From positions 17,527-81,526 of the forward strand of contig JBEKPQ010000015.1 in assembly GCA_049520575.1 (NCBI GenBank): DNA of 64,000 bases. The letters are read 5' to 3'. This document shows, piece by piece, positions 3,070 to 48,327 of this stretch (its first letter is position 1; each line of letters opens with the position of its first letter). The stretch is from Thermodesulfobacteriota bacterium (GTDB lineage Bacteria > Desulfobacterota > RBG-13-43-22). The notes under the pieces are model-generated. The model ran no database searches, had not been told where the DNA came from, and was given only the letters and a program-made list of their open reading frames with translations. The translations under genes and the position numbers were made by a program.

Positions 3070-4164
3070 TCATTCTTTTTTTCTTGAGACCAAAGGCAGG
3101 GAAATTTTAACCAGGGTCCCTTTCCCTTCTTCACTGTCCAACTCCAGCTTCCCTCCAGGATGTCCATCGATAATTTTTTTTGAAACGCTGAGACCCAGAC
3201 CCGTGCCCCGACGTTTGGTGGTAAAAAAAGGAGTAAACAACTTGTCCCGATCTTTTGTTGGTATCCCGGGGCCATTGTCAATAATGGAAATTTCCACCTG
3301 GTTGTCCAACGGTTTGGCCTGGATAGTCAAATTACCGCCTTTTTCCATGGCTTCCATGGCGTTTTTTACCAAATTCAAAAAAACCTGTTTTAATTTACCC
3401 GAATCACCCTTAACCCAAAGGGGATCTTTGGGCGTCTTCAACACCAAAGCGATCTTTGCCTTTTTGCAGTCCTCTTTGGAAAGGGAATAAATCTCCTTCA
3501 TCAGGGTATTGATATCCACTTGCTCGAAAACTAATTCTTGAGGACGGTACACATCCTTGAGTTCCAGGATCAGTTTTTCCAACCGCTGGACCTCGTCGGC
3601 GATAATTTTCAACTTGGTCTGACTTTTCTCATCCTGGATGGTCCTGGAAAGCTGCCTGGCGAATCCCCCGATCATGATCAAGGGGTTCTTTATCTCATGG
3701 GTGATTTCGGCCACCAGTTGTCCCAGTGCGGCCAGGCGTTCGGATTGGGCAATCTTTTCCTCGAGGGTCTTGGTTTCCGTCAGATCTCTGATGATTCCAG
3801 TAAAATAAATTTTGCCCTCGATTTCCGAAACGGAAAAGGAAATGGAGAGGGGGAACTTTTCCCCATTCTTCCGGGTAGTCAAAAATTCGGTTTGATGACC
3901 GATGAGTTTTGATTCCCCGGTATTTAAAAACCTGGAAACTGCCTGTTTATGGCCTTTTTCACACTCCGGAGAGAGAATCAATCCCAGATCTTTTCCGATG
4001 ACCTCTTCTCGGGAATAACCAAAGATCTTTTCAGCGGCCTTATTGAAAATGATCACCTGATGATGTTCATCGATGGTGACAAATCCCTCGTTGGTGTTTT
4101 CTGTTGTCCCCCGAAGGATGATTGATTCCAGATCGGAAGGGGGAAGGCCGCATTTTTTCCGCAT
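3070..4164 (-). CDS. PAS-domain sensor histidine kinase
   Basis: PAS region (FVTIDEHHQVIIFNKAAEKIFGY), HisKA H-box (AEITHEIKNPL) and HATPase_c N/G boxes (NLVKNAMEA, DNGPGIP, GTGLGL). Confidence 0.85.
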   Translation of the reverse strand: MRKKCGLPPSDLESIILRGTTENTNEGFVTIDEHHQVIIFNKAAEKIFGYSREEVIGKDLGLILSPECEKGHKQAVSRFLNTGESKLIGHQTEFLTTRKNGEKFPLSISFSVSEIEGKIYFTGIIRDLTETKTLEEKIAQSERLAALGQLVAEITHEIKNPLIMIGGFARQLSRTIQDEKSQTKLKIIADEVQRLEKLILELKDVYRPQELVFEQVDINTLMKEIYSLSKEDCKKAKIALVLKTPKDPLWVKGDSGKLKQVFLNLVKNAMEAMEKGGNLTIQAKPLDNQVEISIIDNGPGIPTKDRDKLFTPFFTTKRRGTGLGLSVSKKIIDGHPGGKLELDSEEGKGTLVKISLPLVSRKKE

Positions 4165-4197
4165 AGAGATTCCGTCCGTTATTTTGAAACGCGCTGG

Positions 4198-4356
4198 CTA
4201 TTCTTGCTCAAACTTGTCCTTGGTAGCCCCGCAAACCGGGCAGGTCCAATCCTCCGGAAGGTCTTCAAATCGGGTTCCTGGTTTTATTCCATTATCCGGA
4301 TCACCATTGGCCGGGTCATAAACATATCCACAGATCGAGCAAACATACTTTTCCAT
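4198..4356 (-). CDS. rub: rubredoxin (52 aa); absent from the ORF track because it is under 60 aa
   Basis: Manual translation gives [52 protein letters not shown], with the canonical CxxCG...CPxCG rubredoxin knuckles. A GGAGAGG Shine-Dalgarno lies 11 nt upstream. Confidence 0.85.
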
Positions 4357-4382
4357 CTCTTGATTTTCCTCTCCGTTTTTGA

Positions 4383-4637
4383 TTAAGCCGCTACCTCATA
4401 GCCTGCTTTTTTTACTTTATCTTTAATGATACTCAGGTCAATCGGTTTTGTTTCCGTAAAGGCGGCCTCGCCTTTTTCGAGATCAACGGCCACATTCTGA
4501 AGTCCGTCGATTTCTTTTAAGGTTTTGGTTACGGCCATGACACAATGCTGACAGGACATCCCTTTTATTTTTACAGTTGTTATCGTGATACTCCTTTCTA
4601 CGAAAGCGGTCCAAGGTAAAAGGGAAGGAATCGACAT
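4383..4637 (-). CDS. heavy-metal-associated (HMA/CopZ-like) domain protein
   Basis: GMSCQHC metal-binding motif in a ferredoxin-like beta-alpha-beta-beta-alpha-beta context. The true start may be internal to the 84-aa ORF. Confidence 0.55.
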
Positions 4638-4782
4638 TGGGAATTACCTTGCACCTTACTATTTTCCTACCCTCAAGGAAAACGATTTTTAATAAAACTA
4701 ATCACTAAGAAATGAAATGTAAAGTGACGGCAAGCCGTTCTCTTAATTTTCTAAAAAAGGCCAGGGTTGGATTTCCAAAACA

Positions 4783-5115
4783 TTAATAGGGAAGCCTGGT
4801 CTGAGGCCGCCGTTCCGGAACATAAGAATGAGGCCCTTCGGTCTCGTTCCATGCCTTGGAGACATAGAGGTTACAATAACAACTTCCGAAATCTTCCACA
4901 TCCTGGGTCCTGTAAGCACACGGGCAGATAATGTCCTGGTCGAGTTTTCGGTCTCCGGAAGCTAGCCGGCAAGGACAGCACATATAGCTATAACGATCTT
5001 TATTGAGAAGAAGTGCCTGGAGCAGGTCGTTTACCCTTTCCCGGTCTTTGTTAAAAAAATAGCCTTTGGGCTCCTGTGCCTTTTTTAACAGGTCATAGAG
5101 TTCTTTTTCATTCAT
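4783..5115 (-). CDS. ferredoxin:thioredoxin reductase catalytic-subunit-like protein (FTR-like)
   Basis: Cys pattern CPCR...CPC...CYC, matching the FtrC 4Fe-4S/disulfide motif CPCx(n)CPCx(n)CHC. Confidence 0.6.
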   Translation of the reverse strand: MNEKELYDLLKKAQEPKGYFFNKDRERVNDLLQALLLNKDRYSYMCCPCRLASGDRKLDQDIICPCAYRTQDVEDFGSCYCNLYVSKAWNETEGPHSYVPERRPQTRLPY

Positions 5116-5360
5116 AGGCCCAGGACCTCCTTGATCTCTTTTTCTTTGAATCCGACAATGATCCTATCGCCGATGAGGATAGTCGGGAAGGAAGTGTTGG
5201 GATTATATTTTTTCACCTCTTTAATTATCTCAGTCTGCTCCTGACCTTGAAGCAGATCGACATCGATATAGTCATAGGCGACGCCCATGTTGTTCAGGAA
5301 TTGTTTGGTGTTTTTGCAATGACTGCAGGTGCTCAAGGTGTAGAGTTTAACCGGCGGCAT
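5112..5360 (-). CDS. glutaredoxin-like thioredoxin-fold protein
   Basis: 82 aa with an N-terminal CSHC redox motif and a glutaredoxin-like fold signature (SFPTILIGDRIIVGF). Its start overlaps the stop of the FTR-like gene. Confidence 0.6.
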   Translation of the reverse strand: MPPVKLYTLSTCSHCKNTKQFLNNMGVAYDYIDVDLLQGQEQTEIIKEVKKYNPNTSFPTILIGDRIIVGFKEKEIKEVLGL

Positions 5361-5485: not shown

Positions 5486-7180
5486 TTGGATCTCTTGACT
5501 ATGGATAAAGTCTATTATCTAAATCTGGGTCTGGTTCCCTTTGAGCAGGCCTGGGACCTGCAAAAACAACTGGTTGCCCTGAAAAAGGAAAGGGAATTTC
5601 CGGATTTTCTTATTCTTTTGGAACATCCTCCGGTATACACGCTGGGTAAATGGGGGAAAAAAGAGAATCTGTACGTGTCCCCGGACTTTCTGAAGCAGGA
5701 GGGGATCTCCTTGATACGTTGTGAGCGGGGAGGAGATATTACTTACCATGGGCCGGGACAATTGGTGGGCTATCCTCTTCTCAATTTGAAAAAATATAGA
5801 CTGGGTGTTAAGGACTATGTAAATTTTCTTGAGGAGGTCCTGGTTAGAAGCCTGTTGGATTGGGAGGTTGTGGCTTCCCGGAGGGAGGGTTTGCCCGGGA
5901 TATGGGTGGGCGAAAAAAAAATTGCTTCTATCGGAATTGCCGTCCAAAAGGGGATCGCCTTCCATGGTTTTGCCCTAAATTATGCCCATAGAAGGGATCA
6001 TTTCGAACGGATTAATCCTTGCGGCCTGGATGGCGTGAAGATGACTTCCCTTCAGGAAATAAAGGGGCTGCCCATAGACCCAGAGCAGGTTAGAACGCGA
6101 GTGGTTTTCCATTTTGAAAAGATTTTTGATATTCAATTGAAATGGATAACCATGGAAGATGTGAGAAGGATACTGGATACTGGATACTGGATACTGGATA
6201 AAAAGACAGAATCCCAACCCCCAAATCCGATGGCTAAAATCCAGCAGTCCACCGTCCGCTATCCGCCATCCGCCATTGAGCGTTTACAAACTTCGAAGGG
6301 CGAACAGCAAATACTTCCCAAACCACAATGGCTTAAGAAAAGAATCCCTCCAAGTGCCCATAGGGTCCAAGTTGAAAGCCTTATTCGGAAAGGCGATCTG
6401 CATACCGTCTGCCAAGAGGCCTGTTGCCCTAATCAAGGAGAATGTTTCAATCAAGGAACAGCCACTTTTTTACTGATGGGAAATTGTTGTACTCGAAACT
6501 GCCATTTTTGTGCCGTTACCAAGGGCAGCCCGGAGCCTTTGAATCCAGAGGAACCCTTTCGGGTCGCTCAGGCCATCAAAGCCATGAGTATTTCTTATGC
6601 TGTATTGACCTCAGTGACCCGCGATGATCTGCCCGATGGAGGATCCGGGCATTTTGTCAGGACGGTCAGGGCTATCCGTGATCATTCCCCGGAAACGAAG
6701 ATAGAATGTCTTATACCGGACTTTAAAGGCTCTGAATCAGCCCTGGCCCAGGTGGCGGAGGCTGTTCCCTGTGTAATGAATCACAATATTGAAACCATAA
6801 ATCGGCTCTATCCATCGGTCCGTCCCGGTGCGGGGTTTAACCGTTCGCTGACTATTTTTAAATTTTTTAATAAAAATTATCCTAAAATATTGACCAAATC
6901 TGGATTTATGGTAGGATTAGTGGAAACGAAAATTGAAGTCAGGGCCTTGCTTCTCGATCTGTTGGAGCATGGTTGTAAGATGGTTACCATCGGCCAATAC
7001 CTCCAGCCTTCGTCTGCTCATTGTCCGGTGAAGCGCTATGTTACGCCGGAGGAATTTAAACAATGGGAGGAAGAGGCCTTAACCATGGGATTTGCGGCCG
7101 TGGCCTCTGGCCCGTTTGTTCGCAGTTCTTTTAATGCCCAAGGGTTGTATCAGCAGGCATTCTTAAAATTAACGTTATAA
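5486..7180 (+). CDS. lipB-lipA: octanoyltransferase LipB fused in frame to lipoyl synthase LipA
   Basis: N-terminal 230 aa are LipB (HPPVYTLGK, RGGDITYHGPGQLVGYP). C-terminal part is LipA (KPQWLK, CQEACCPNQGECF, radical-SAM CTRNCHFC). The junction lies at a GGATACT x4.7 tandem repeat. Confidence 0.8.
   Translation: MDLLTMDKVYYLNLGLVPFEQAWDLQKQLVALKKEREFPDFLILLEHPPVYTLGKWGKKENLYVSPDFLKQEGISLIRCERGGDITYHGPGQLVGYPLLNLKKYRLGVKDYVNFLEEVLVRSLLDWEVVASRREGLPGIWVGEKKIASIGIAVQKGIAFHGFALNYAHRRDHFERINPCGLDGVKMTSLQEIKGLPIDPEQVRTRVVFHFEKIFDIQLKWITMEDVRRILDTGYWILDKKTESQPPNPMAKIQQSTVRYPPSAIERLQTSKGEQQILPKPQWLKKRIPPSAHRVQVESLIRKGDLHTVCQEACCPNQGECFNQGTATFLLMGNCCTRNCHFCAVTKGSPEPLNPEEPFRVAQAIKAMSISYAVLTSVTRDDLPDGGSGHFVRTVRAIRDHSPETKIECLIPDFKGSESALAQVAEAVPCVMNHNIETINRLYPSVRPGAGFNRSLTIFKFFNKNYPKILTKSGFMVGLVETKIEVRALLLDLLEHGCKMVTIGQYLQPSSAHCPVKRYVTPEEFKQWEEEALTMGFAAVASGPFVRSSFNAQGLYQQAFLKLTL
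6168..6200 (+). repeat. heptanucleotide tandem repeat (GGATACT)x4.7 at the LipB/LipA junction
   Basis: Read directly: ggatactggatactggatactggatactggata. A TAA lies immediately after the repeat in the +1 frame. Confidence 0.9.
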
Positions 7181-7202: not shown

Positions 7203-7577
7203 ATGACCAAAGAAAAATTTCATCCGGAACATGCCTGGGTATCGGTAAACGGCCACCACGGGACCATCGGTATCTCGGACTATGCCCAACAGCAATTGGG
7301 AGAAATCATCTATGTGGACCTGCCGGAAATCAATACCGAAATCCTGGCGGGTGAACCCTTGTGTGCCTTGGAATCCAGCAAAGTGGCCAGCGATGTGATT
7401 GCCCCGGTCAGCGGGACGGTCATAGAAACCAACGGGTCTTTAGATGAAGAACCCCAACAGATCAATGCTTCTCCCTATGAAGCGGGCTGGCTGGTTAAGG
7501 TCATTTTAAAGAAACCTTCGGAATTGGACGAATTAATGGACAAGGCTGCTTATGAGGAGTATATTGCCTCCAAATAA
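7203..7577 (+). CDS. gcvH: glycine cleavage system H protein (lipoyl carrier)
   Basis: 124 aa with the lipoyl-lysine motif ALESSKVASDV. Confidence 0.9.
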   Translation: MTKEKFHPEHAWVSVNGHHGTIGISDYAQQQLGEIIYVDLPEINTEILAGEPLCALESSKVASDVIAPVSGTVIETNGSLDEEPQQINASPYEAGWLVKVILKKPSELDELMDKAAYEEYIASK

Positions 7578-7643
7578 GCACTATTTTTTTAAAACAAAAC
7601 CTTTTGCCTCTTTGGGGCGCCACGAAACATGAAAATAATTTTA

Positions 7644-7700
7644 GGATTCAAGGATTCAAGTGAAAAGCGTGGAAGTTAAAACCCTTGAATCCTTGAATCC
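7644..7700. repeat. GGATTCAAGGATTCAAGTGAAA element with a matching inverted arm (CTTGAATCCTTGAATCC), hairpin-forming
   Basis: 17-bp inverted repeats 7644-7660 and 7684-7700. Same family as 29550-29605 and the composite copies near trpD. Confidence 0.7.
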
Positions 7701-7722
7701 TATTTTAAGGAGAGGAGAGGGT

Positions 7723-8254: not shown

Positions 8255-9934
8255 TCAGTCTGGTACCGCTTTATTAATGATTATTAAGAATGGTTCTGCT
8301 TTTTTCACACCGATGACCCGGGTTCCGGGGATCTCTTGCCCCTTTTGATCAAAAAACAAAATCGCCGGAGGGCCGAAAAGTCCGAATCTTTTTAAAAAAG
8401 CATCCGTTTCCTCATTGGTCGAGGTCACATCTGCCTTCAGGAGCTTCACTCCTTTGAGTTTTTCTTTGACCCGGGAATCTCTAAAGGTCAAAACCTCCAT
8501 CTCTTTACAGGATACGCACCAATCGGCAGAAACATAAAGCATTACCGCTCGTTCTTGAGTCTCTTTTATCTGGGCCTCTAATTGATTGAGGCTGGTCAGG
8601 CGCTGAAAAGAAAGGGATGAGGTCAAGGGCGGAGAGATAACGGGATAAATGATCCAAAAGGCAACGGCCAACAGGAGTATTCCAAAAAAGACTTTGACCC
8701 ATTTCATCCAGGCCCCGGCCCTCGGCAACAAGGCCCCGGCCGAGGTCCCTATGATTAATAAGGGGACGCCCATGCCCAAGGACAGGGCAAATAAGGCCGA
8801 ACCACCCAGCCAGACGTCGTTTGTCCGGCTGATATAAAGTAAGGCCCCGGCTAGAGGAGCGGTGACACAGGGACTGATAATAATGGCCGAGAGCAACCCT
8901 ATGAAAAAGACCCCCACGAAGGTACCGGCCTTGAACCTGTTCCCGGCGGCGGTCAATTTATTCTGTATGAAAACAGGGAGCTGCAATTCATAAAGCCCGA
9001 ATATGGAAAGGGCCAGGGCCACAAAGATCAAGGCAAAGGCAATCAGCACCCAAATATTTTGCAGCGCATGGGAAATTAATCGGCCTGAGTATCCGGCCGC
9101 CACACCGGCTGCTGTATAGGTCAAGGCCATGCCCAGCACATAGGTCATAGAAAGGAGGAAGGCTCTTTTTTTTATCAGATCCTTCCCCTGGGCAATAATG
9201 ATACCGGAAATGATGGGGATCATGGGCAAAACACAGGGCGTAAAAGAAAGCAGCAGGCCAAATCCAAAGAAGCTTAAAATGATCCAGAAATAGTTATTGC
9301 TTTTCAAAAGCCCGAAGATCTCACCTCCACTCTCCCCTATCGAGGTGGAGGGAGATGCCTTGGAAAAAGCTCCAGGTTCTTCCATCCCTTGGAGGGAAGG
9401 GGTTGAAGGGAAGGGGAAGGGATTCAAATGAACTTTTTGGGTCTTGGGCGGATAACATAAGCCGGCATCGGAACAACCTTGATAAGTGATACTGAGGATT
9501 ATTTGTAAGGTTCTCGGAGACAGTGAGGTTATTGGTATTATAATAACCGCTTCCTTACGGAAGATTTCCGCTCGGCCGAAGTATTTATCTTCTTTAACCT
9601 GGCCGGGTGGAAATTGAGGAGAGCCAATTTTTGTCTGTCTAGTTTCAACAGCAAATTTGAATTTATCCCGATACAGGTAATATTCTTGGGCAATCTGGAA
9701 ACGGATTTCAATCTGGCCGGCCTTGAGCAGGCGGGCTTGAAAGGAAAAGGCTTGTTCGGGTCTTAAAGGCTGACAATATACGGCCTGACACAGAAAAAGG
9801 ATTATAAAGAAAGATAAAATGAAAAAATGCAGGGTAAGACAAAAAGAAAAGTTGCCTTGGGATGTTGAACCTTGAACTTTGAACCTTGAACCTTTTTTAG
9901 GCTTTGAGCCTTGAGCCTTACACCTTGAACTCAT
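8255..9934 (-). CDS. dsbD: thiol:disulfide interchange protein DsbD
   Basis: N-terminal DsbD-alpha (QGCSDAGLCYPP), central multi-pass membrane domain (CVLPMIP) and C-terminal thioredoxin domain (DWCVSCK). The 5' 90 nt overlap a TTCAAGG tandem array, so the start is uncertain. Confidence 0.8.
   Translation of the reverse strand: MSSRCKAQGSKPKKGSRFKVQGSTSQGNFSFCLTLHFFILSFFIILFLCQAVYCQPLRPEQAFSFQARLLKAGQIEIRFQIAQEYYLYRDKFKFAVETRQTKIGSPQFPPGQVKEDKYFGRAEIFRKEAVIIIPITSLSPRTLQIILSITYQGCSDAGLCYPPKTQKVHLNPFPFPSTPSLQGMEEPGAFSKASPSTSIGESGGEIFGLLKSNNYFWIILSFFGFGLLLSFTPCVLPMIPIISGIIIAQGKDLIKKRAFLLSMTYVLGMALTYTAAGVAAGYSGRLISHALQNIWVLIAFALIFVALALSIFGLYELQLPVFIQNKLTAAGNRFKAGTFVGVFFIGLLSAIIISPCVTAPLAGALLYISRTNDVWLGGSALFALSLGMGVPLLIIGTSAGALLPRAGAWMKWVKVFFGILLLAVAFWIIYPVISPPLTSSLSFQRLTSLNQLEAQIKETQERAVMLYVSADWCVSCKEMEVLTFRDSRVKEKLKGVKLLKADVTSTNEETDAFLKRFGLFGPPAILFFDQKGQEIPGTRVIGVKKAEPFLIIINKAVPD
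9850..9934. repeat. tandem octamer array (G[TC]TCAAGG-like units) of the GGATTCAAGG family
   Basis: Minus-strand reading: gttcaaggtgtaaggctcaaggctcaaagcc...ggttcaaggttcaaagttcaaggttcaac. Confidence 0.7.
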
Positions 9935-29549: not shown

Positions 29550-29605
29550 GGATTCAAGGATTCAGGGATTCAAGTGAAAGGCTTGGAAATCAATCTCATG
29601 AATCC
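29550..29605. repeat. GGATTCAAGGATTCAGGGATTCAAGTGAAAGG ... ATGAATCC element (same family as 7644-7700)
   Basis: Sequence identity to the 7644-7700 element. Lies immediately upstream of the def start. Confidence 0.65.
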
Positions 29606-29820
29606 TAGTTTTTTTTAATAAAACTCTTTATTATTTCTTTCCTTAAAATTTGAATTATTAACAATATGCAGAAAAACCCTCTATTACAGGTTGCTCAAAA
29701 AGGTTCAGATACAAGGCGCCCGAAATTCCGAAGAATGAGGCGTAATAGAAGTACGCCGCAATGACGAGGGATGAGGGCAACGCTGTAGATGGGCCTTTTT
29801 CAGTAACCTGTTAATTTTCT

Positions 29821-38192: not shown

Positions 38193-38288
38193 TTGAAATT
38201 CGAACACTGAATTTCGAATTATGAAGGGAGTTCGATTTGATTTCCTTCGATATTCAGTATTCGTTATTCGATATTCGACATTTTTGGC
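38193..38288 (+). promoter_or_regulatory. copy 3 of the conserved upstream element
   Basis: ATTGAAATTCGAACACTGAATTTCGAATTATGAAGGGA...TTCGATATTCGACATTTTT. Ends 3 nt before ATG 38292. Confidence 0.6.
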
Positions 38289-38291
38289 TTC

Positions 38292-39632
38292 ATGTCCCAG
38301 CCTGCCGGCGGACATGAGACTTTAGAGAAGATTAGTAAAAAAACGATAATGTCCATCCCCGCTTTGGTCAAGGTGCTCTGTGTCTTCGGTTTGGTTCTCG
38401 TTCTTAACCGAGTACGCCTTGGTTTGAGTCTCTGTCTCTTCATCGGTTCTTTGGTGCTTGGTATCTGGATGCAAATGGGTCCCGCCGATCTGGTTTGGAG
38501 CGCCCTTCAAAGTCTCGTGCACATCCAGACGATCAGCCTGATCCTGATTGTCGGATTTATCCTGGTTATCAGCTGTCTGATGAAAGAGAGCCGGCATCTG
38601 GACCGGATCGTGGAAGGCTTTGCCCGGATTTCGGGTGATGATCGTACCGCAAGTTTGGTGTTGCCGGCCCTGATCGGGTTACTTCCCATGCCCGGGGGCG
38701 CGCTTTTCTCTGCACCCATGGTTGAAGCCTCCCTTAGTAGATACCCTTTAACCGGCGAATATCAAACAGTAGTCAATTATTGGTTCCGGCATATCTGGGA
38801 ATACTGGTGGCCGCTCTATCCGGGGGTGGTGCTGGCAGTGGCCTTACTGAAGGTGGAGATGTGGCGTTTTATTGCCATCATGGTGCCTATGACCATTGTG
38901 ATGGTCTTGGCCGGCGTGATCTTCATTCTAAGACCCATCAGACAAGAGTCCATTTCTCGGAAGAAGGTCTTCTCCTCATCAGGGCTGAAAAGTTTTTTGT
39001 GGGAGATCATGCCAATCCTCGTTGTTGTTATGGTCATTATTCTCCTGGCGGGTCTGACCGGCCTTTTGAATCTTTCCGGGATCAATATCAACCTGCCTGG
39101 GGCCGTGTCTATTCTTCCCGGTCTCCTGGTATCCGCCATCTGGGTATGCGTAGTCAACCGTATTCATTTCAGGCAATTGACGACAGCGGTCTTTGATCGG
39201 AACATCCTTTTCATTATATTTTTAGTGGCAGCCATTATGATCTTCCAGGGGATTATGAAAGACAGCCGGGCTGTGGTCGAAATTCGAAACGAACTTATGG
39301 CCTACAGGATTCCTCTTCTGCTGGTTATCATCATCATGCCTTTTCTGTCTGGTCTTATCACTGGAATTGCCATCGGATTTGTGGGGACCTCTTTCCCTCT
39401 GATCATTCCTCTGTTTCCTGTTTATCCCCTTATTAATTTTCTCTCCTATGCTGCACTGGCCTATGTTTTCGGCTTTGTGGGCATGATGCTATCTCCGGTC
39501 CACCTTTGTTTCCTGGTCACCAAAGACTACTTTAAAGCCAATCTCCTGGGCAGCTATCGCCTCATCATTTACCCCACGTTGAGTGTTTTATTAACGGCCG
39601 TTGTTTTCTTTGTAATTTCCAGGGCGCTCTAA
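38292..39632 (+). CDS. polytopic membrane protein (about 12 TM, DUF401-like; function unknown)
   Basis: Long hydrophobic ORF. The alternative start at 38349 cannot be excluded. Confidence 0.5.
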   Translation: MSQPAGGHETLEKISKKTIMSIPALVKVLCVFGLVLVLNRVRLGLSLCLFIGSLVLGIWMQMGPADLVWSALQSLVHIQTISLILIVGFILVISCLMKESRHLDRIVEGFARISGDDRTASLVLPALIGLLPMPGGALFSAPMVEASLSRYPLTGEYQTVVNYWFRHIWEYWWPLYPGVVLAVALLKVEMWRFIAIMVPMTIVMVLAGVIFILRPIRQESISRKKVFSSSGLKSFLWEIMPILVVVMVIILLAGLTGLLNLSGININLPGAVSILPGLLVSAIWVCVVNRIHFRQLTTAVFDRNILFIIFLVAAIMIFQGIMKDSRAVVEIRNELMAYRIPLLLVIIIMPFLSGLITGIAIGFVGTSFPLIIPLFPVYPLINFLSYAALAYVFGFVGMMLSPVHLCFLVTKDYFKANLLGSYRLIIYPTLSVLLTAVVFFVISRAL

Positions 39633-42160: not shown

Positions 42161-42300
42161 GATTTGAGGGTTTAGACACTCGACTTTGTCGAGCTATAGA
42201 AAAGGTTCCCCTCCGGGGAACCCGGGATTTAACTTCCGCGCATTTCACTTGAATCCTTGACCCCTTGAATCCTGGGACCCTACTTAGTATTAATTAAAGA
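42161..42300. repeat. composite structured repeat (hairpins, GGTTCCCC/GGGGAACC stem, TTTCACTTGAATCC module)
   Basis: Shares about 70 nt (cgagctatagaaaaggttccc ... gggaacccggg.t.taacttcc...tttcacttgaatccttg) with 43381-43625. Confidence 0.65.
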
Positions 42301-43380: not shown

Positions 43381-43625
43381 AAAAGGGTTCGAGGATTCAA
43401 GGGTTCGAGGGTTCAGCCGCTCGGTCCGCTCGGCTCCGCCGAGCTTCTGAAGAGGCTCCCTCTTGGGAGCCGATCCGGCGAGCTATAGAAAAGGTTCCCG
43501 TACGGTCGGCTTTGCCGACCTAAAAGGGAGGCTTCCGAATGGAAGCCGGATCGGGGAACCCGGGTCTAACTTCCATGCCTTTCACTTGAATCCTTGGACC
43601 CCTGACCCCTTGAATCCTTTTTCAG
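43381..43625. repeat. longer composite copy of the same structured repeat, with two extra inserted hairpins
   Basis: Contains ggattcaagggttcgagggttcag, gccgctcggtccgctcggctccgccgagc, and hairpins ggtcggctttgccgacc and ggcttccgaatggaagcc. Confidence 0.65.
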
Positions 43626-48174: not shown

Positions 48175-48327
48175 GTTCTCATCCGGAAACAACCTTTCCG
48201 GATGAGAACATACAGCTGCCGGCTATCATCTATGGCCAGAAACCCTTTGAAAAAGGGTTTCTGGCGAGAGCTTAACGCGGAAATCCAGGTGTTTCCATCC
48301 GGAAATTCAAATTTCCGGATGGAAACT
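48175..48327. repeat. cluster of three long perfect palindromes; the outer two share the core CATCCGGAAA...TTTCCGGATG
   Basis: GTTCTCATCCGGAAA-caacc-TTTCCGGATGAGAAC (48175-48209); CAGAAACCC-tttgaaaaa-GGGTTTCTG (48237-48263); GTTTCCATCCGGAAATT-caa-AATTTCCGGATGGAAAC (48291-48327). Confidence 0.7.

Follow-up and report, generated by a model that had tools for sequence, protein, structure and literature searches.

A LipB-LipA fusion gene with a heptanucleotide-repeat junction in a Thermodesulfobacteriota bacterium

When two enzymes are encoded in one reading frame through a tandem repeat whose unit is not a multiple of three, is the fusion real, is it an error of assembly, or is it one state of a phase switch? 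The question is raised by a 64,000-nucleotide (nt) stretch of DNA from a Thermodesulfobacteriota bacterium (assembly GCA_049520575.1, contig JBEKPQ010000015.1, positions 17,527 to 81,526; the window), in which an octanoyltransferase (LipB) and a lipoyl synthase (LipA) share a single open reading frame (ORF) and are joined by (GGATACT)x4.7. We consider it highly probable that this gene encodes a stable fused enzyme with a repeat-built linker, and that slippage at the linker has mediated fusion and fission over evolutionary time, with no phase-variation switch demonstrated.

The fused gene and its distribution

The gene, its parts and its downstream neighbor are as follows; residue numbers throughout are those of the 564-residue ORF that starts at TTG 5486.

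5501..7180, + strand: fused lipB-lipA gene from the ORF list, 559 amino acids (aa) from ATG 5501, or 564 aa from the alternative start TTG 5486
5510..6181, + strand: LipB octanoyltransferase domain, residues 9-232, its last helix at 223-232 (MEDVRRILDT)
6197..6313, + strand: inter-domain linker predicted to be disordered, residues 238-276, with an AlphaFold2 predicted local distance difference test score (pLDDT) <50
6314..7177, + strand: LipA lipoyl synthase domain, residues 277-564, from TIGR00510, PDB 5exi and motifs
7203..7577, + strand: gcvH, encoding the glycine cleavage H protein, a lipoyl-acceptor substrate; PF01597 (GCV_H) at 6.9e-39

Pfam places LplA-B_cat at residues 20-210, LIAS_N at 265-314 and Radical_SAM at 331-490. 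For the LipB half, the PF21948 match (2.8e-45) reaches 155.2 bits against a cut-off of 27 and covers profile positions 3-199 of 200, the NCBIfam lipB model TIGR00214 gives 171.6 bits and so passes its curated cut-off of 83.55, and among solved structures PDB 2qht is matched at 5e-46. The LipA half passes the NCBIfam lipA model TIGR00510 (367 bits, curated cut-off 310.25), scores 395 with NF009544 (cut-off 210) and matches PDB 5exi at 1.7e-80. In an alignment of 23 fused homologues (A1), LipB residues K145 (in KIASIG) and P178-C179-G180 (PCG) are invariant, as are three LipA motifs that were also confirmed by regular expression: the CX4CX5C of the auxiliary cluster (C309-C314-C320), the CX3CX2C belonging to the radical S-adenosylmethionine (SAM) cluster (C335-C339-C342), and the C-terminal serine-ligand motif RSS[FY], here RSSF (R546-S547-S548). 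K145 and C179 are presumably the catalytic Lys/Cys dyad, equivalent to K135/C169 of Escherichia coli. AlphaFold2 models residues 9-232 and 277-563 confidently (pLDDT about 90), and the disorder of the linker between LipB and LipA is a prediction of the same model.

Pfam, NCBIfam and structure matches thus agree, and they uphold a preliminary description of this DNA, made from its letters, which had claimed a complete LipB and a complete LipA in one 564-aa ORF with gcvH downstream. The ORF encodes a genuine LipB-LipA enzyme with two activities, both predicted from family membership: LipB at the N-terminus would pass octanoate from octanoyl-acyl carrier protein to the lysine that bears the lipoyl group in GcvH or E2 proteins, LipA, the radical-SAM domain at the C-terminus, would insert two sulfurs, and a gene for the presumed substrate, gcvH, is co-located downstream, where a GAGGTG ribosome-binding site precedes it. 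The synteny lipBA-gcvH is kept in L002 and L111-L119 (L-labels are loci of relatives, and P-labels are homologous proteins). The product is 100% identical to P0001, annotated as 'MAG: lipoyl synthase [Thermodesulfobacteriota bacterium]'; public gene calls differ in their start, P0001 beginning at ATG 5501 (559 aa) and P0121 at TTG 5486 (564 aa).

The fusion was found in more than 120 homologue clusters. All of the 120 best carry PF21948 and PF04055 in one protein, of 456-630 aa, and the fused homologues span Thermodesulfobacteriota, Bacillota, Planctomycetes and Anaerolineae. Cultured isolates are among them, with finished genomes for Desulfonema limicola (6.9 Mb) and Desulfoscipio gibsoniae (4.9 Mb), and with further cases in Desulfofundulus, Propionispora and Desulfotomaculum arcticum; UniRef names such homologues 'Multifunctional fusion protein'. 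The LipB-LipA fusions found in UniRef and NCBI (Desulfonema limicola, Desulfoscipio gibsoniae, Propionispora vibrioides) have the same domain order as ours at 43-48% identity, but differ from it in their short linkers without heptamer arrays, and alignment A1 likewise gives short, repeat-free linkers for the distant fusions. Genuine, conserved fusions without repeats therefore exist among the relatives, an observation that the preliminary description had itself named as one that would speak against its proposal of a repeat-driven switch. A scan of a genome collection, mostly of distant loci, found fused and split lipB-lipA loci both to be common across bacteria, a result that we take qualitatively, its motif-based classifier having left many loci unclassified.

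Stand-alone LipB (TIGR00214; PDB 2qht, 1w66) and LipA (TIGR00510; PDB 5exi, 4u0p) are recognized by the same models and have the same catalytic motifs as the two halves, and at known split loci lipB and lipA are usually adjacent or overlapping, in the order of the fused gene. What differs here is that they form one polypeptide, in which a linker of about 40-60 aa, encoded by repeats and predicted to be disordered, connects them. Another likeness is to the LplA-LipA fusion of NF053790 (bifunctional lipoate-protein ligase/lipoyl synthase), in which an acyl-transfer enzyme of the same superfamily stands ahead of LipA; the N-terminal domain here is LipB, however, not LplA, and the protein scores 377.5 bits with that model against a cut-off of 800, matching it with the LipA half only (profile positions 322-604). 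Full-text searches of the library at hand found no literature on LipB-LipA fusions, the expression 'LipB-LipA' denoting there the pathway or lipase genes, and the fusion appears to be experimentally uncharacterized. Within this widespread, apparently unstudied fusion family the gene is in itself ordinary.

The heptamer tract and its length among relatives

The junction between the two domains holds four further features.

6168..6200, + strand: perfect heptanucleotide array (GGATACT)x4.7, from Tandem Repeats Finder (TRF), a shuffle test and relatives
6199..6201, + strand: out-of-frame TAA within the GAT-AAA codons, which would end LipB after +1 or -2 units
6230..6232, + strand: in-frame ATG (Met249, MAKIQ), 28 nt past the TAA, taken in the preliminary description for the 'own start' of LipA
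6240..6276, + strand: second, degenerate heptamer-periodic array (ATCCAGC AGTCCAC CGTCCGC TATCCGC CATCCGC)

TRF recovers the very array that had been described as joining the halves (33 nt, 100% perfect, score 66). It encodes R228-K240 (R-I-L-D-T-G-Y-W-I-L-D-K-K). Within these residues the last LipB helix ends and the disordered linker sets in, the initial 1.5 units encoding the conserved helix end [IM]-L-[DE]-T-G and the remaining units beginning the linker. No other perfect heptamer array of at least 2.5 copies is present in the 64-kb window, for which dinucleotide shuffles expect 0.03. The unit GGATACT is stop-free in all six frames. It was rejected as a dispersed repeat: its 8 matches in the window (at most 3 mismatches) compare with 4.3 expected, and 4 of the 8 lie inside the tract itself.

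Being a perfect tandem repeat inside an ORF, with a unit that is not a multiple of three, the tract has the structure of a contingency locus, and the outcomes of unit changes from -3 to +3 were simulated in silico. One unit more yields a 235-aa LipB ending ...ILDTG* at TAA 6199-6201, reproducing what had been claimed for such a gain, and two units fewer a 228-aa LipB stopped at the same TAA; -1 or +2 units would leave LipB with an out-of-frame junk tail of about 90 residues, and +3 or -3 units retain the fusion. The TAA does stand directly after the repeat as described, although its frame is +2/-1 rather than +1, and the in-frame MAKIQ start exists, although at 6230-6232 rather than 6229. Neither signal is conserved: the position of the TAA holds GAC in L001 and GGG in L112, and Met249 is found in the window and L115 only, being missing from L001 and L110-L114. 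No Shine-Dalgarno motif was found 5' of ATG 6230. A promoter scan found nothing promoter-like near the junction, the nearest + strand matches lying at 5711-5740 (in LipB) and 6890-6917 (in LipA), and the 7 promoter-like matches in the region barely exceed the shuffle mean of 4.0. With no ribosome-binding site, a Met that is not conserved and no promoter-like site nearby, translation of a separate LipA from ATG 6230 was rejected. Programmed ribosomal frameshifting was also dismissed, as the tract lacks the X XXY YYZ pattern of a slippery site and the fused product is what the zero frame yields already.

Tract length was compared among relatives over a slot bounded by the conserved Met codon (..TMEDV..) and the poly-A run.

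Window and L003, 100% identical: slot 48 nt, fused
L115, 93.6% nt identity, on a 1.09-Mb contig from another study: slot 48 nt, fused
L001, 91% nt identity: slot 48 nt, fused
L110 and L111, about 66% protein identity: slot 48 nt, fused
L112, Desulfobacca sp., 65% protein identity: slot of equivalent length, fused

These slots of the same length differ by point substitutions alone; that of L115 reads GGATACG GGATACG GGATACT GGATACT GGAT, and that of L001 GGATACT GGATACT GGATGCG GGATACA GGAC. Among the closest loci (window/L002, L003, L115 and L001) the length does not differ.

Tandem repeats are prone to mis-assembly and the sequence is metagenomic, and it had been suggested that the junction could be an assembly error, in which case the true genome would have another copy number and separate lipB and lipA. 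That suggestion is excluded because the contig of L003, from a different sample, matches the window at 100% identity across 5.5 kb and encodes the same fused protein, and because the 33-nt tract is far shorter than a read (and shorter than usual k-mers). The slot length is moreover shared by L115, L001, L110, L111 and L112, which come from different studies and are all fused, and fusions are present in the finished isolate genomes. We regard the probability of a sequencing or assembly artefact as negligible.

The preliminary description had seen here the architecture of a classic slipped-strand phase switch. Such a contingency locus would change frequently and reversibly between fused LipB-LipA and truncated LipB with a separate LipA, and switching would alter the dosage or organization of the lipoylation enzymes. 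Its structural prerequisites are present in the perfect 4.7-unit repeat, in the clean end that +1 or -2 units give to LipB 28 nt before an in-frame ATG, and in units that apparently evolve in concert; a relative with one unit fewer and separate, predictedly functional genes also exists (see below). Copy number is nevertheless the same in two assemblies of one population and in three further genomes at 91-94% nt identity, and fused relatives with as little as 65% protein identity keep the length unchanged. The TAA and ATG that the switch would use are not conserved, the ATG is without a ribosome-binding site, and alleles of -1 or +2 units would combine a junk-tailed LipB with a LipA dependent on that unassisted internal ATG.

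The known phase-variable gene neuO of E. coli K1, on the CUS-3 prophage, is in mechanism the closest analogue of the proposed switch. Its coding sequence contains (AAGACTC)n, full length needs an in-frame unit count, 3-53 units occur among 64 genomes with 66% of these out of phase, and subpopulations of 20, 21 and 22 units were found inside one culture. The two loci are alike in having a 7-nt unit inside an ORF. However, neuO is an accessory gene for surface modification with its repeat at the 5' end, whereas the lipB-lipA tract has 4.7 units only, is invariant in close relatives, and encodes an inter-domain linker of a housekeeping enzyme, in a cofactor pathway of a free-living anaerobe rather than in a surface or restriction-modification gene; its 'off' outcome would moreover be gene fission, not protein loss. 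Copy-number variation between strains, a key feature of such loci, fails to appear here; the comparative evidence gives no support to a classic phase switch, and we judge frequent reversible switching to be very unlikely.

Slot-length changes, fusion and fission in the clade

Slot length does vary among more distant loci. L114, whose gene is fused, has a slot of 69 nt (three units, or 21 nt, longer) that is 7-periodic throughout. In L116 and L117, identical contigs from two samples, the slot is 41 nt (-7 nt, or -1 unit), reading GGATGCT GGATACT CGATACT GGAT; here lipB (115-843, 242 aa) and lipA (840-1784, 314 aa) are two genes that overlap by ATGA, each of them intact and with all catalytic motifs present. 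At both ends the L116 array is read as fused relatives read theirs, in the frame of LipB at the 5' end (KRMLDTRYW...) and in that of LipA at the 3' end and the next bases (...ILDKNPES), and the two frames are out of register solely by the absent 7 nt. L116 LipA retains an N-terminal extension homologous to the linkers of fused proteins, and the L116 LipB domain, 82% identical to that of P0005 (the fused protein of L112), falls inside the fused proteins in a neighbor-joining (NJ) tree. L116 and L117 have one unit fewer and split genes, but at only about 73% nt identity to the window (76% to L112), which makes the time scale evolutionary and not that of a population. Since one unit fewer goes with split genes and three units more with a fused gene, we conclude that unit slippage has toggled between the fused and split states on evolutionary time. 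The toggle that had been proposed for this tract survives in that slow form, and not as a classic fast switch. When the public protein collection was queried with the LipB half, no separate LipB of more than 68% identity came back, though oddly the fused proteins were not listed either.

Other traces at the tract point to slippage. Adjacent units carry identical substitutions (GGAAACT x3 in L112, GGATACG x2 in L115), which suggests concerted evolution by slippage with the length restored. In P0124, a cluster mate of P0003, linker residues of about 222-240 correspond to a differently framed reading of the tract, with RRDAGYRFLDTRIKESESK (DAGYRFLDTRIKE) in place of RKMLDTGSWIPDKKSESK, and to judge from the protein sequence alone the normal frame would be regained through a compensating indel; so read, this case shows that the tract tolerates frame changes.

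Routes to fission besides unit slippage occur in the clade as well. L120 (P0134), whose LipB domain is 96% identical to that of the fused P0124, is split by a deletion in the linker interior that is not a multiple of three; its junction (960-1010) joins GGATGCT to CAAAAAACT, lipB and lipA overlap by 23 nt, and the start codon of LipA is the ATG inside the GGATGCT repeat unit. L119 has no linker, and its lipB and lipA genes overlap. In L118 (3080-3720; LipB P0136, LipB domain 69% identical) a lipA pseudogene lies between an intact lipB and an intact gcvH: the N-terminal half with both iron-sulfur cluster motifs is gone, and the C-terminal half is in three frames. That contig could hold long-read indel errors, but such errors cannot account for the large deletion, and the lineage may have lost lipoyl synthase.

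We propose the following account. The two domains are joined by a linker of about 40-60 residues that is predicted to be disordered, and which in a Desulfobacca-related clade of Thermodesulfobacteriota is a patchwork of heptanucleotide arrays, with (GGATACT)x4.7 as the best-preserved of them. As GGATACT is stop-free in every frame, the tract would tolerate slippage and even frame changes. Selection would hold the two domains in phase, and the tract looks stable at present; over evolutionary time, slippage at the slot would have given rise to in-frame length variants (+3 units), and at least once to a -1-unit allele in which the fusion was broken up into a lipB and a lipA that are separate but translationally coupled. 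Slot length then tracks the one-protein or two-protein state across relatives (-1 unit split, 0 fused, +3 fused). Repeat-mediated fusion and fission of this kind is a modestly novel variant of known phenomena, and offers a concrete sequence-level example of simple-sequence slippage making and breaking gene fusions. For annotators, it means that a repeat at such a junction should not by itself be read as an assembly error or as a phase switch, and the natural fused and split variants provide a ready comparison for a possible channelling benefit of the LipB-LipA fusion.

Several points weigh against this account. The polarity from fused to split is drawn from an NJ tree without bootstrap (about 205 residues) and from the linker remnants on both L116 genes, and which mutation came first in L116 is not provable because its linker diverged further downstream. 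The missing Shine-Dalgarno motif at ATG 6230 is weak evidence because the annotated start of the fused gene is also without a clear one, and enzymatic bifunctionality, like the disorder of the linker, is a prediction. The agreeing assemblies show the majority allele only, so that minority copy-number alleles may be present in the population, and the tract is more homogeneous here than in any relative, which could reflect recent slippage activity. There could thus be a low-frequency switch, in which a minority of cells with +1 or -1 alleles make separate LipB and LipA, as has been fixed in L116. If so, the lineage would keep trying out an essential cofactor pathway in both its fused and its split form, and stop-free heptamer arrays would be reversible hinges of this clade for gene fusion and fission. 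We give this low-frequency switch little credence, and population-level switching of the tract is unlikely.

Linker arrays, hairpin potential and other repeats

The whole junction, from the LipB end 'HF..[IV]F' to the LipA 'PxWLKK', is 65 aa here and 54-96 aa in relatives, among which the linker region is unalignable and variable in length. In all 8 of the 8 close relatives with DNA obtained, the junction is pieced together from heptamer-periodic arrays, whose units include GGATACT-like ones, the reverse complement ATCCAGT, CCGAACT, GCAACCC, CCGCAAT, CAGCAAC and GTTTCAA. The second array of the window, within which TRF reports TCCGCCA x3.1 at 6255-6276, is a decayed reverse-complement partner of the GGATACT array; relatives hold clear ATCCAGT arrays in that place. 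Arrays at lag 7 are enriched in the window, with 3 found against 0 for lags 4-6 and 8-11. From this we infer that the linker was built or invaded by a short-unit repeat type carried elsewhere in the lineage, and that the repeat would be tolerated in the linker because it is stop-free and located between domains.

Cyanobacterial short tandemly repeated repetitive (STRR) heptamers are comparable short heptamer arrays; to our knowledge, no link of such arrays to this phylum has been reported. Arrays of the heptamer TAACTGA are present in Beggiatoaceae, Cyanobacteria and Bacteroidetes, in 2-6 copies that are scattered, mostly intergenic or just upstream of starts, and tolerated in ORFs only at the domain periphery (PMC4679880). 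The window resembles these genomes in having short, scattered heptamer arrays, also at 38246, 1735 and 9865, but its unit sequence is another one, and forward TAACTGA has stops in all frames where GGATACT has none.

The inverted arrangement of the arrays leaves room for another reading, in which a palindromic repeat element, or a descendant of one, makes up the linker DNA and forms a long hairpin with its own function, perhaps in ribosome pausing between the domains, mRNA processing or protein binding; this may co-exist with a stable fusion subject to slow slippage. In relatives GGATRCT arrays are followed by ATCCAGT arrays, and in the minimum free energy fold of the window GGAU pairs with AUCC of the second array in a 7-nt register. 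Linker folds are more stable than shuffles in L113 (z -5.0), L111 (z -4.8), L114 (z -3.2), and L110 and L112 (both z -2.1), yet are not significant in the window (z -1.5), L115, L001, L116 and L005 (z -1.5 to 0), and a low z is a trivial consequence of inverted arrays and no proof of function. The lag-7 enrichment would suit such an element, and the linker would be like the intergenic tandem-octamer hairpins of this genome, the one at 7642-7702 sharing an architecture of tandem units in inverted arms; Rfam, however, has no match anywhere in the window, linker and intergenic repeats included. The linker interior is also dispensable, being deleted in L120 and absent from L119 and the distant fusions. 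A functional hairpin in the linker of the window was rejected at z = -1.5, significance being reached in some relatives only, and we hold a palindromic element with its own function, or descent from one, to be an unlikely though not negligible addition to the slippage account.

The intergenic tandem-octamer elements (AGGATTCA / GGATTCAAG) lie at 7642-7702, with similar ones at 29550-29612, 42230-42290 and 43383-43415. That at 7642-7702, just downstream of gcvH, is a perfect inverted repeat with 19-nt arms that are 100% complementary and a loop, TGAAAAGCGTGGAAGTTAAAACC; the other copies combine the same octamers with a TGAAAGGCTTGGAA-like or GCGCGGAAGTTAAA-like core, and Rfam has no match to them. 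They look like a small dispersed repeat family.

Two degenerate heptamer arrays, at 38246-38282 and 1735-1790, belong to one family in opposite orientations and are both intergenic, with units TTCGATA TTCAGTA TTCGTTA... and TATGAAA...TATCGAA TAATGAA TACTGAA. The array at 38246-38282 stops about 10 nt short of the ATG of ORF 38292..39632, reminiscent of the Beggiatoaceae TAACTGA arrays upstream of start codons (PMC4679880). At 9864-9919, (TTGAACC)x4.3 is followed by (TTGAGCC)x2.3 within the first 25 or so codons of a DsbD-like ORF (8255..9934, - strand), where the repeat peptide would be ...KAQGSKPKKGSRFKVQGS..., upstream of a hydrophobic signal segment; this further heptamer array at the margin of a coding region is either translated or part of a 5' untranslated region.

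A redox gene cluster (3070-5360, - strand), which includes a PAS histidine kinase, lies upstream of lipBA, with these members:

4198-4356, - strand: rubredoxin
4383-4637, - strand: HMA-domain protein
4783-5115, - strand: ferredoxin-thioredoxin reductase catalytic-subunit-like protein
5112-5360, - strand: glutaredoxin

The synteny of this cluster with lipBA-gcvH is kept in L001 and L115. The gene for the ferredoxin-thioredoxin reductase-like protein is uncalled in L002/L003 despite identical DNA, an annotation inconsistency. Finally, 48175-48326 holds dense nested palindromes based on GTTTCCATCCGGAAA / TTTCCGGATGAGAAC, with 17-nt and 15-nt arms that are 100% complementary and a 54-nt imperfect pair.

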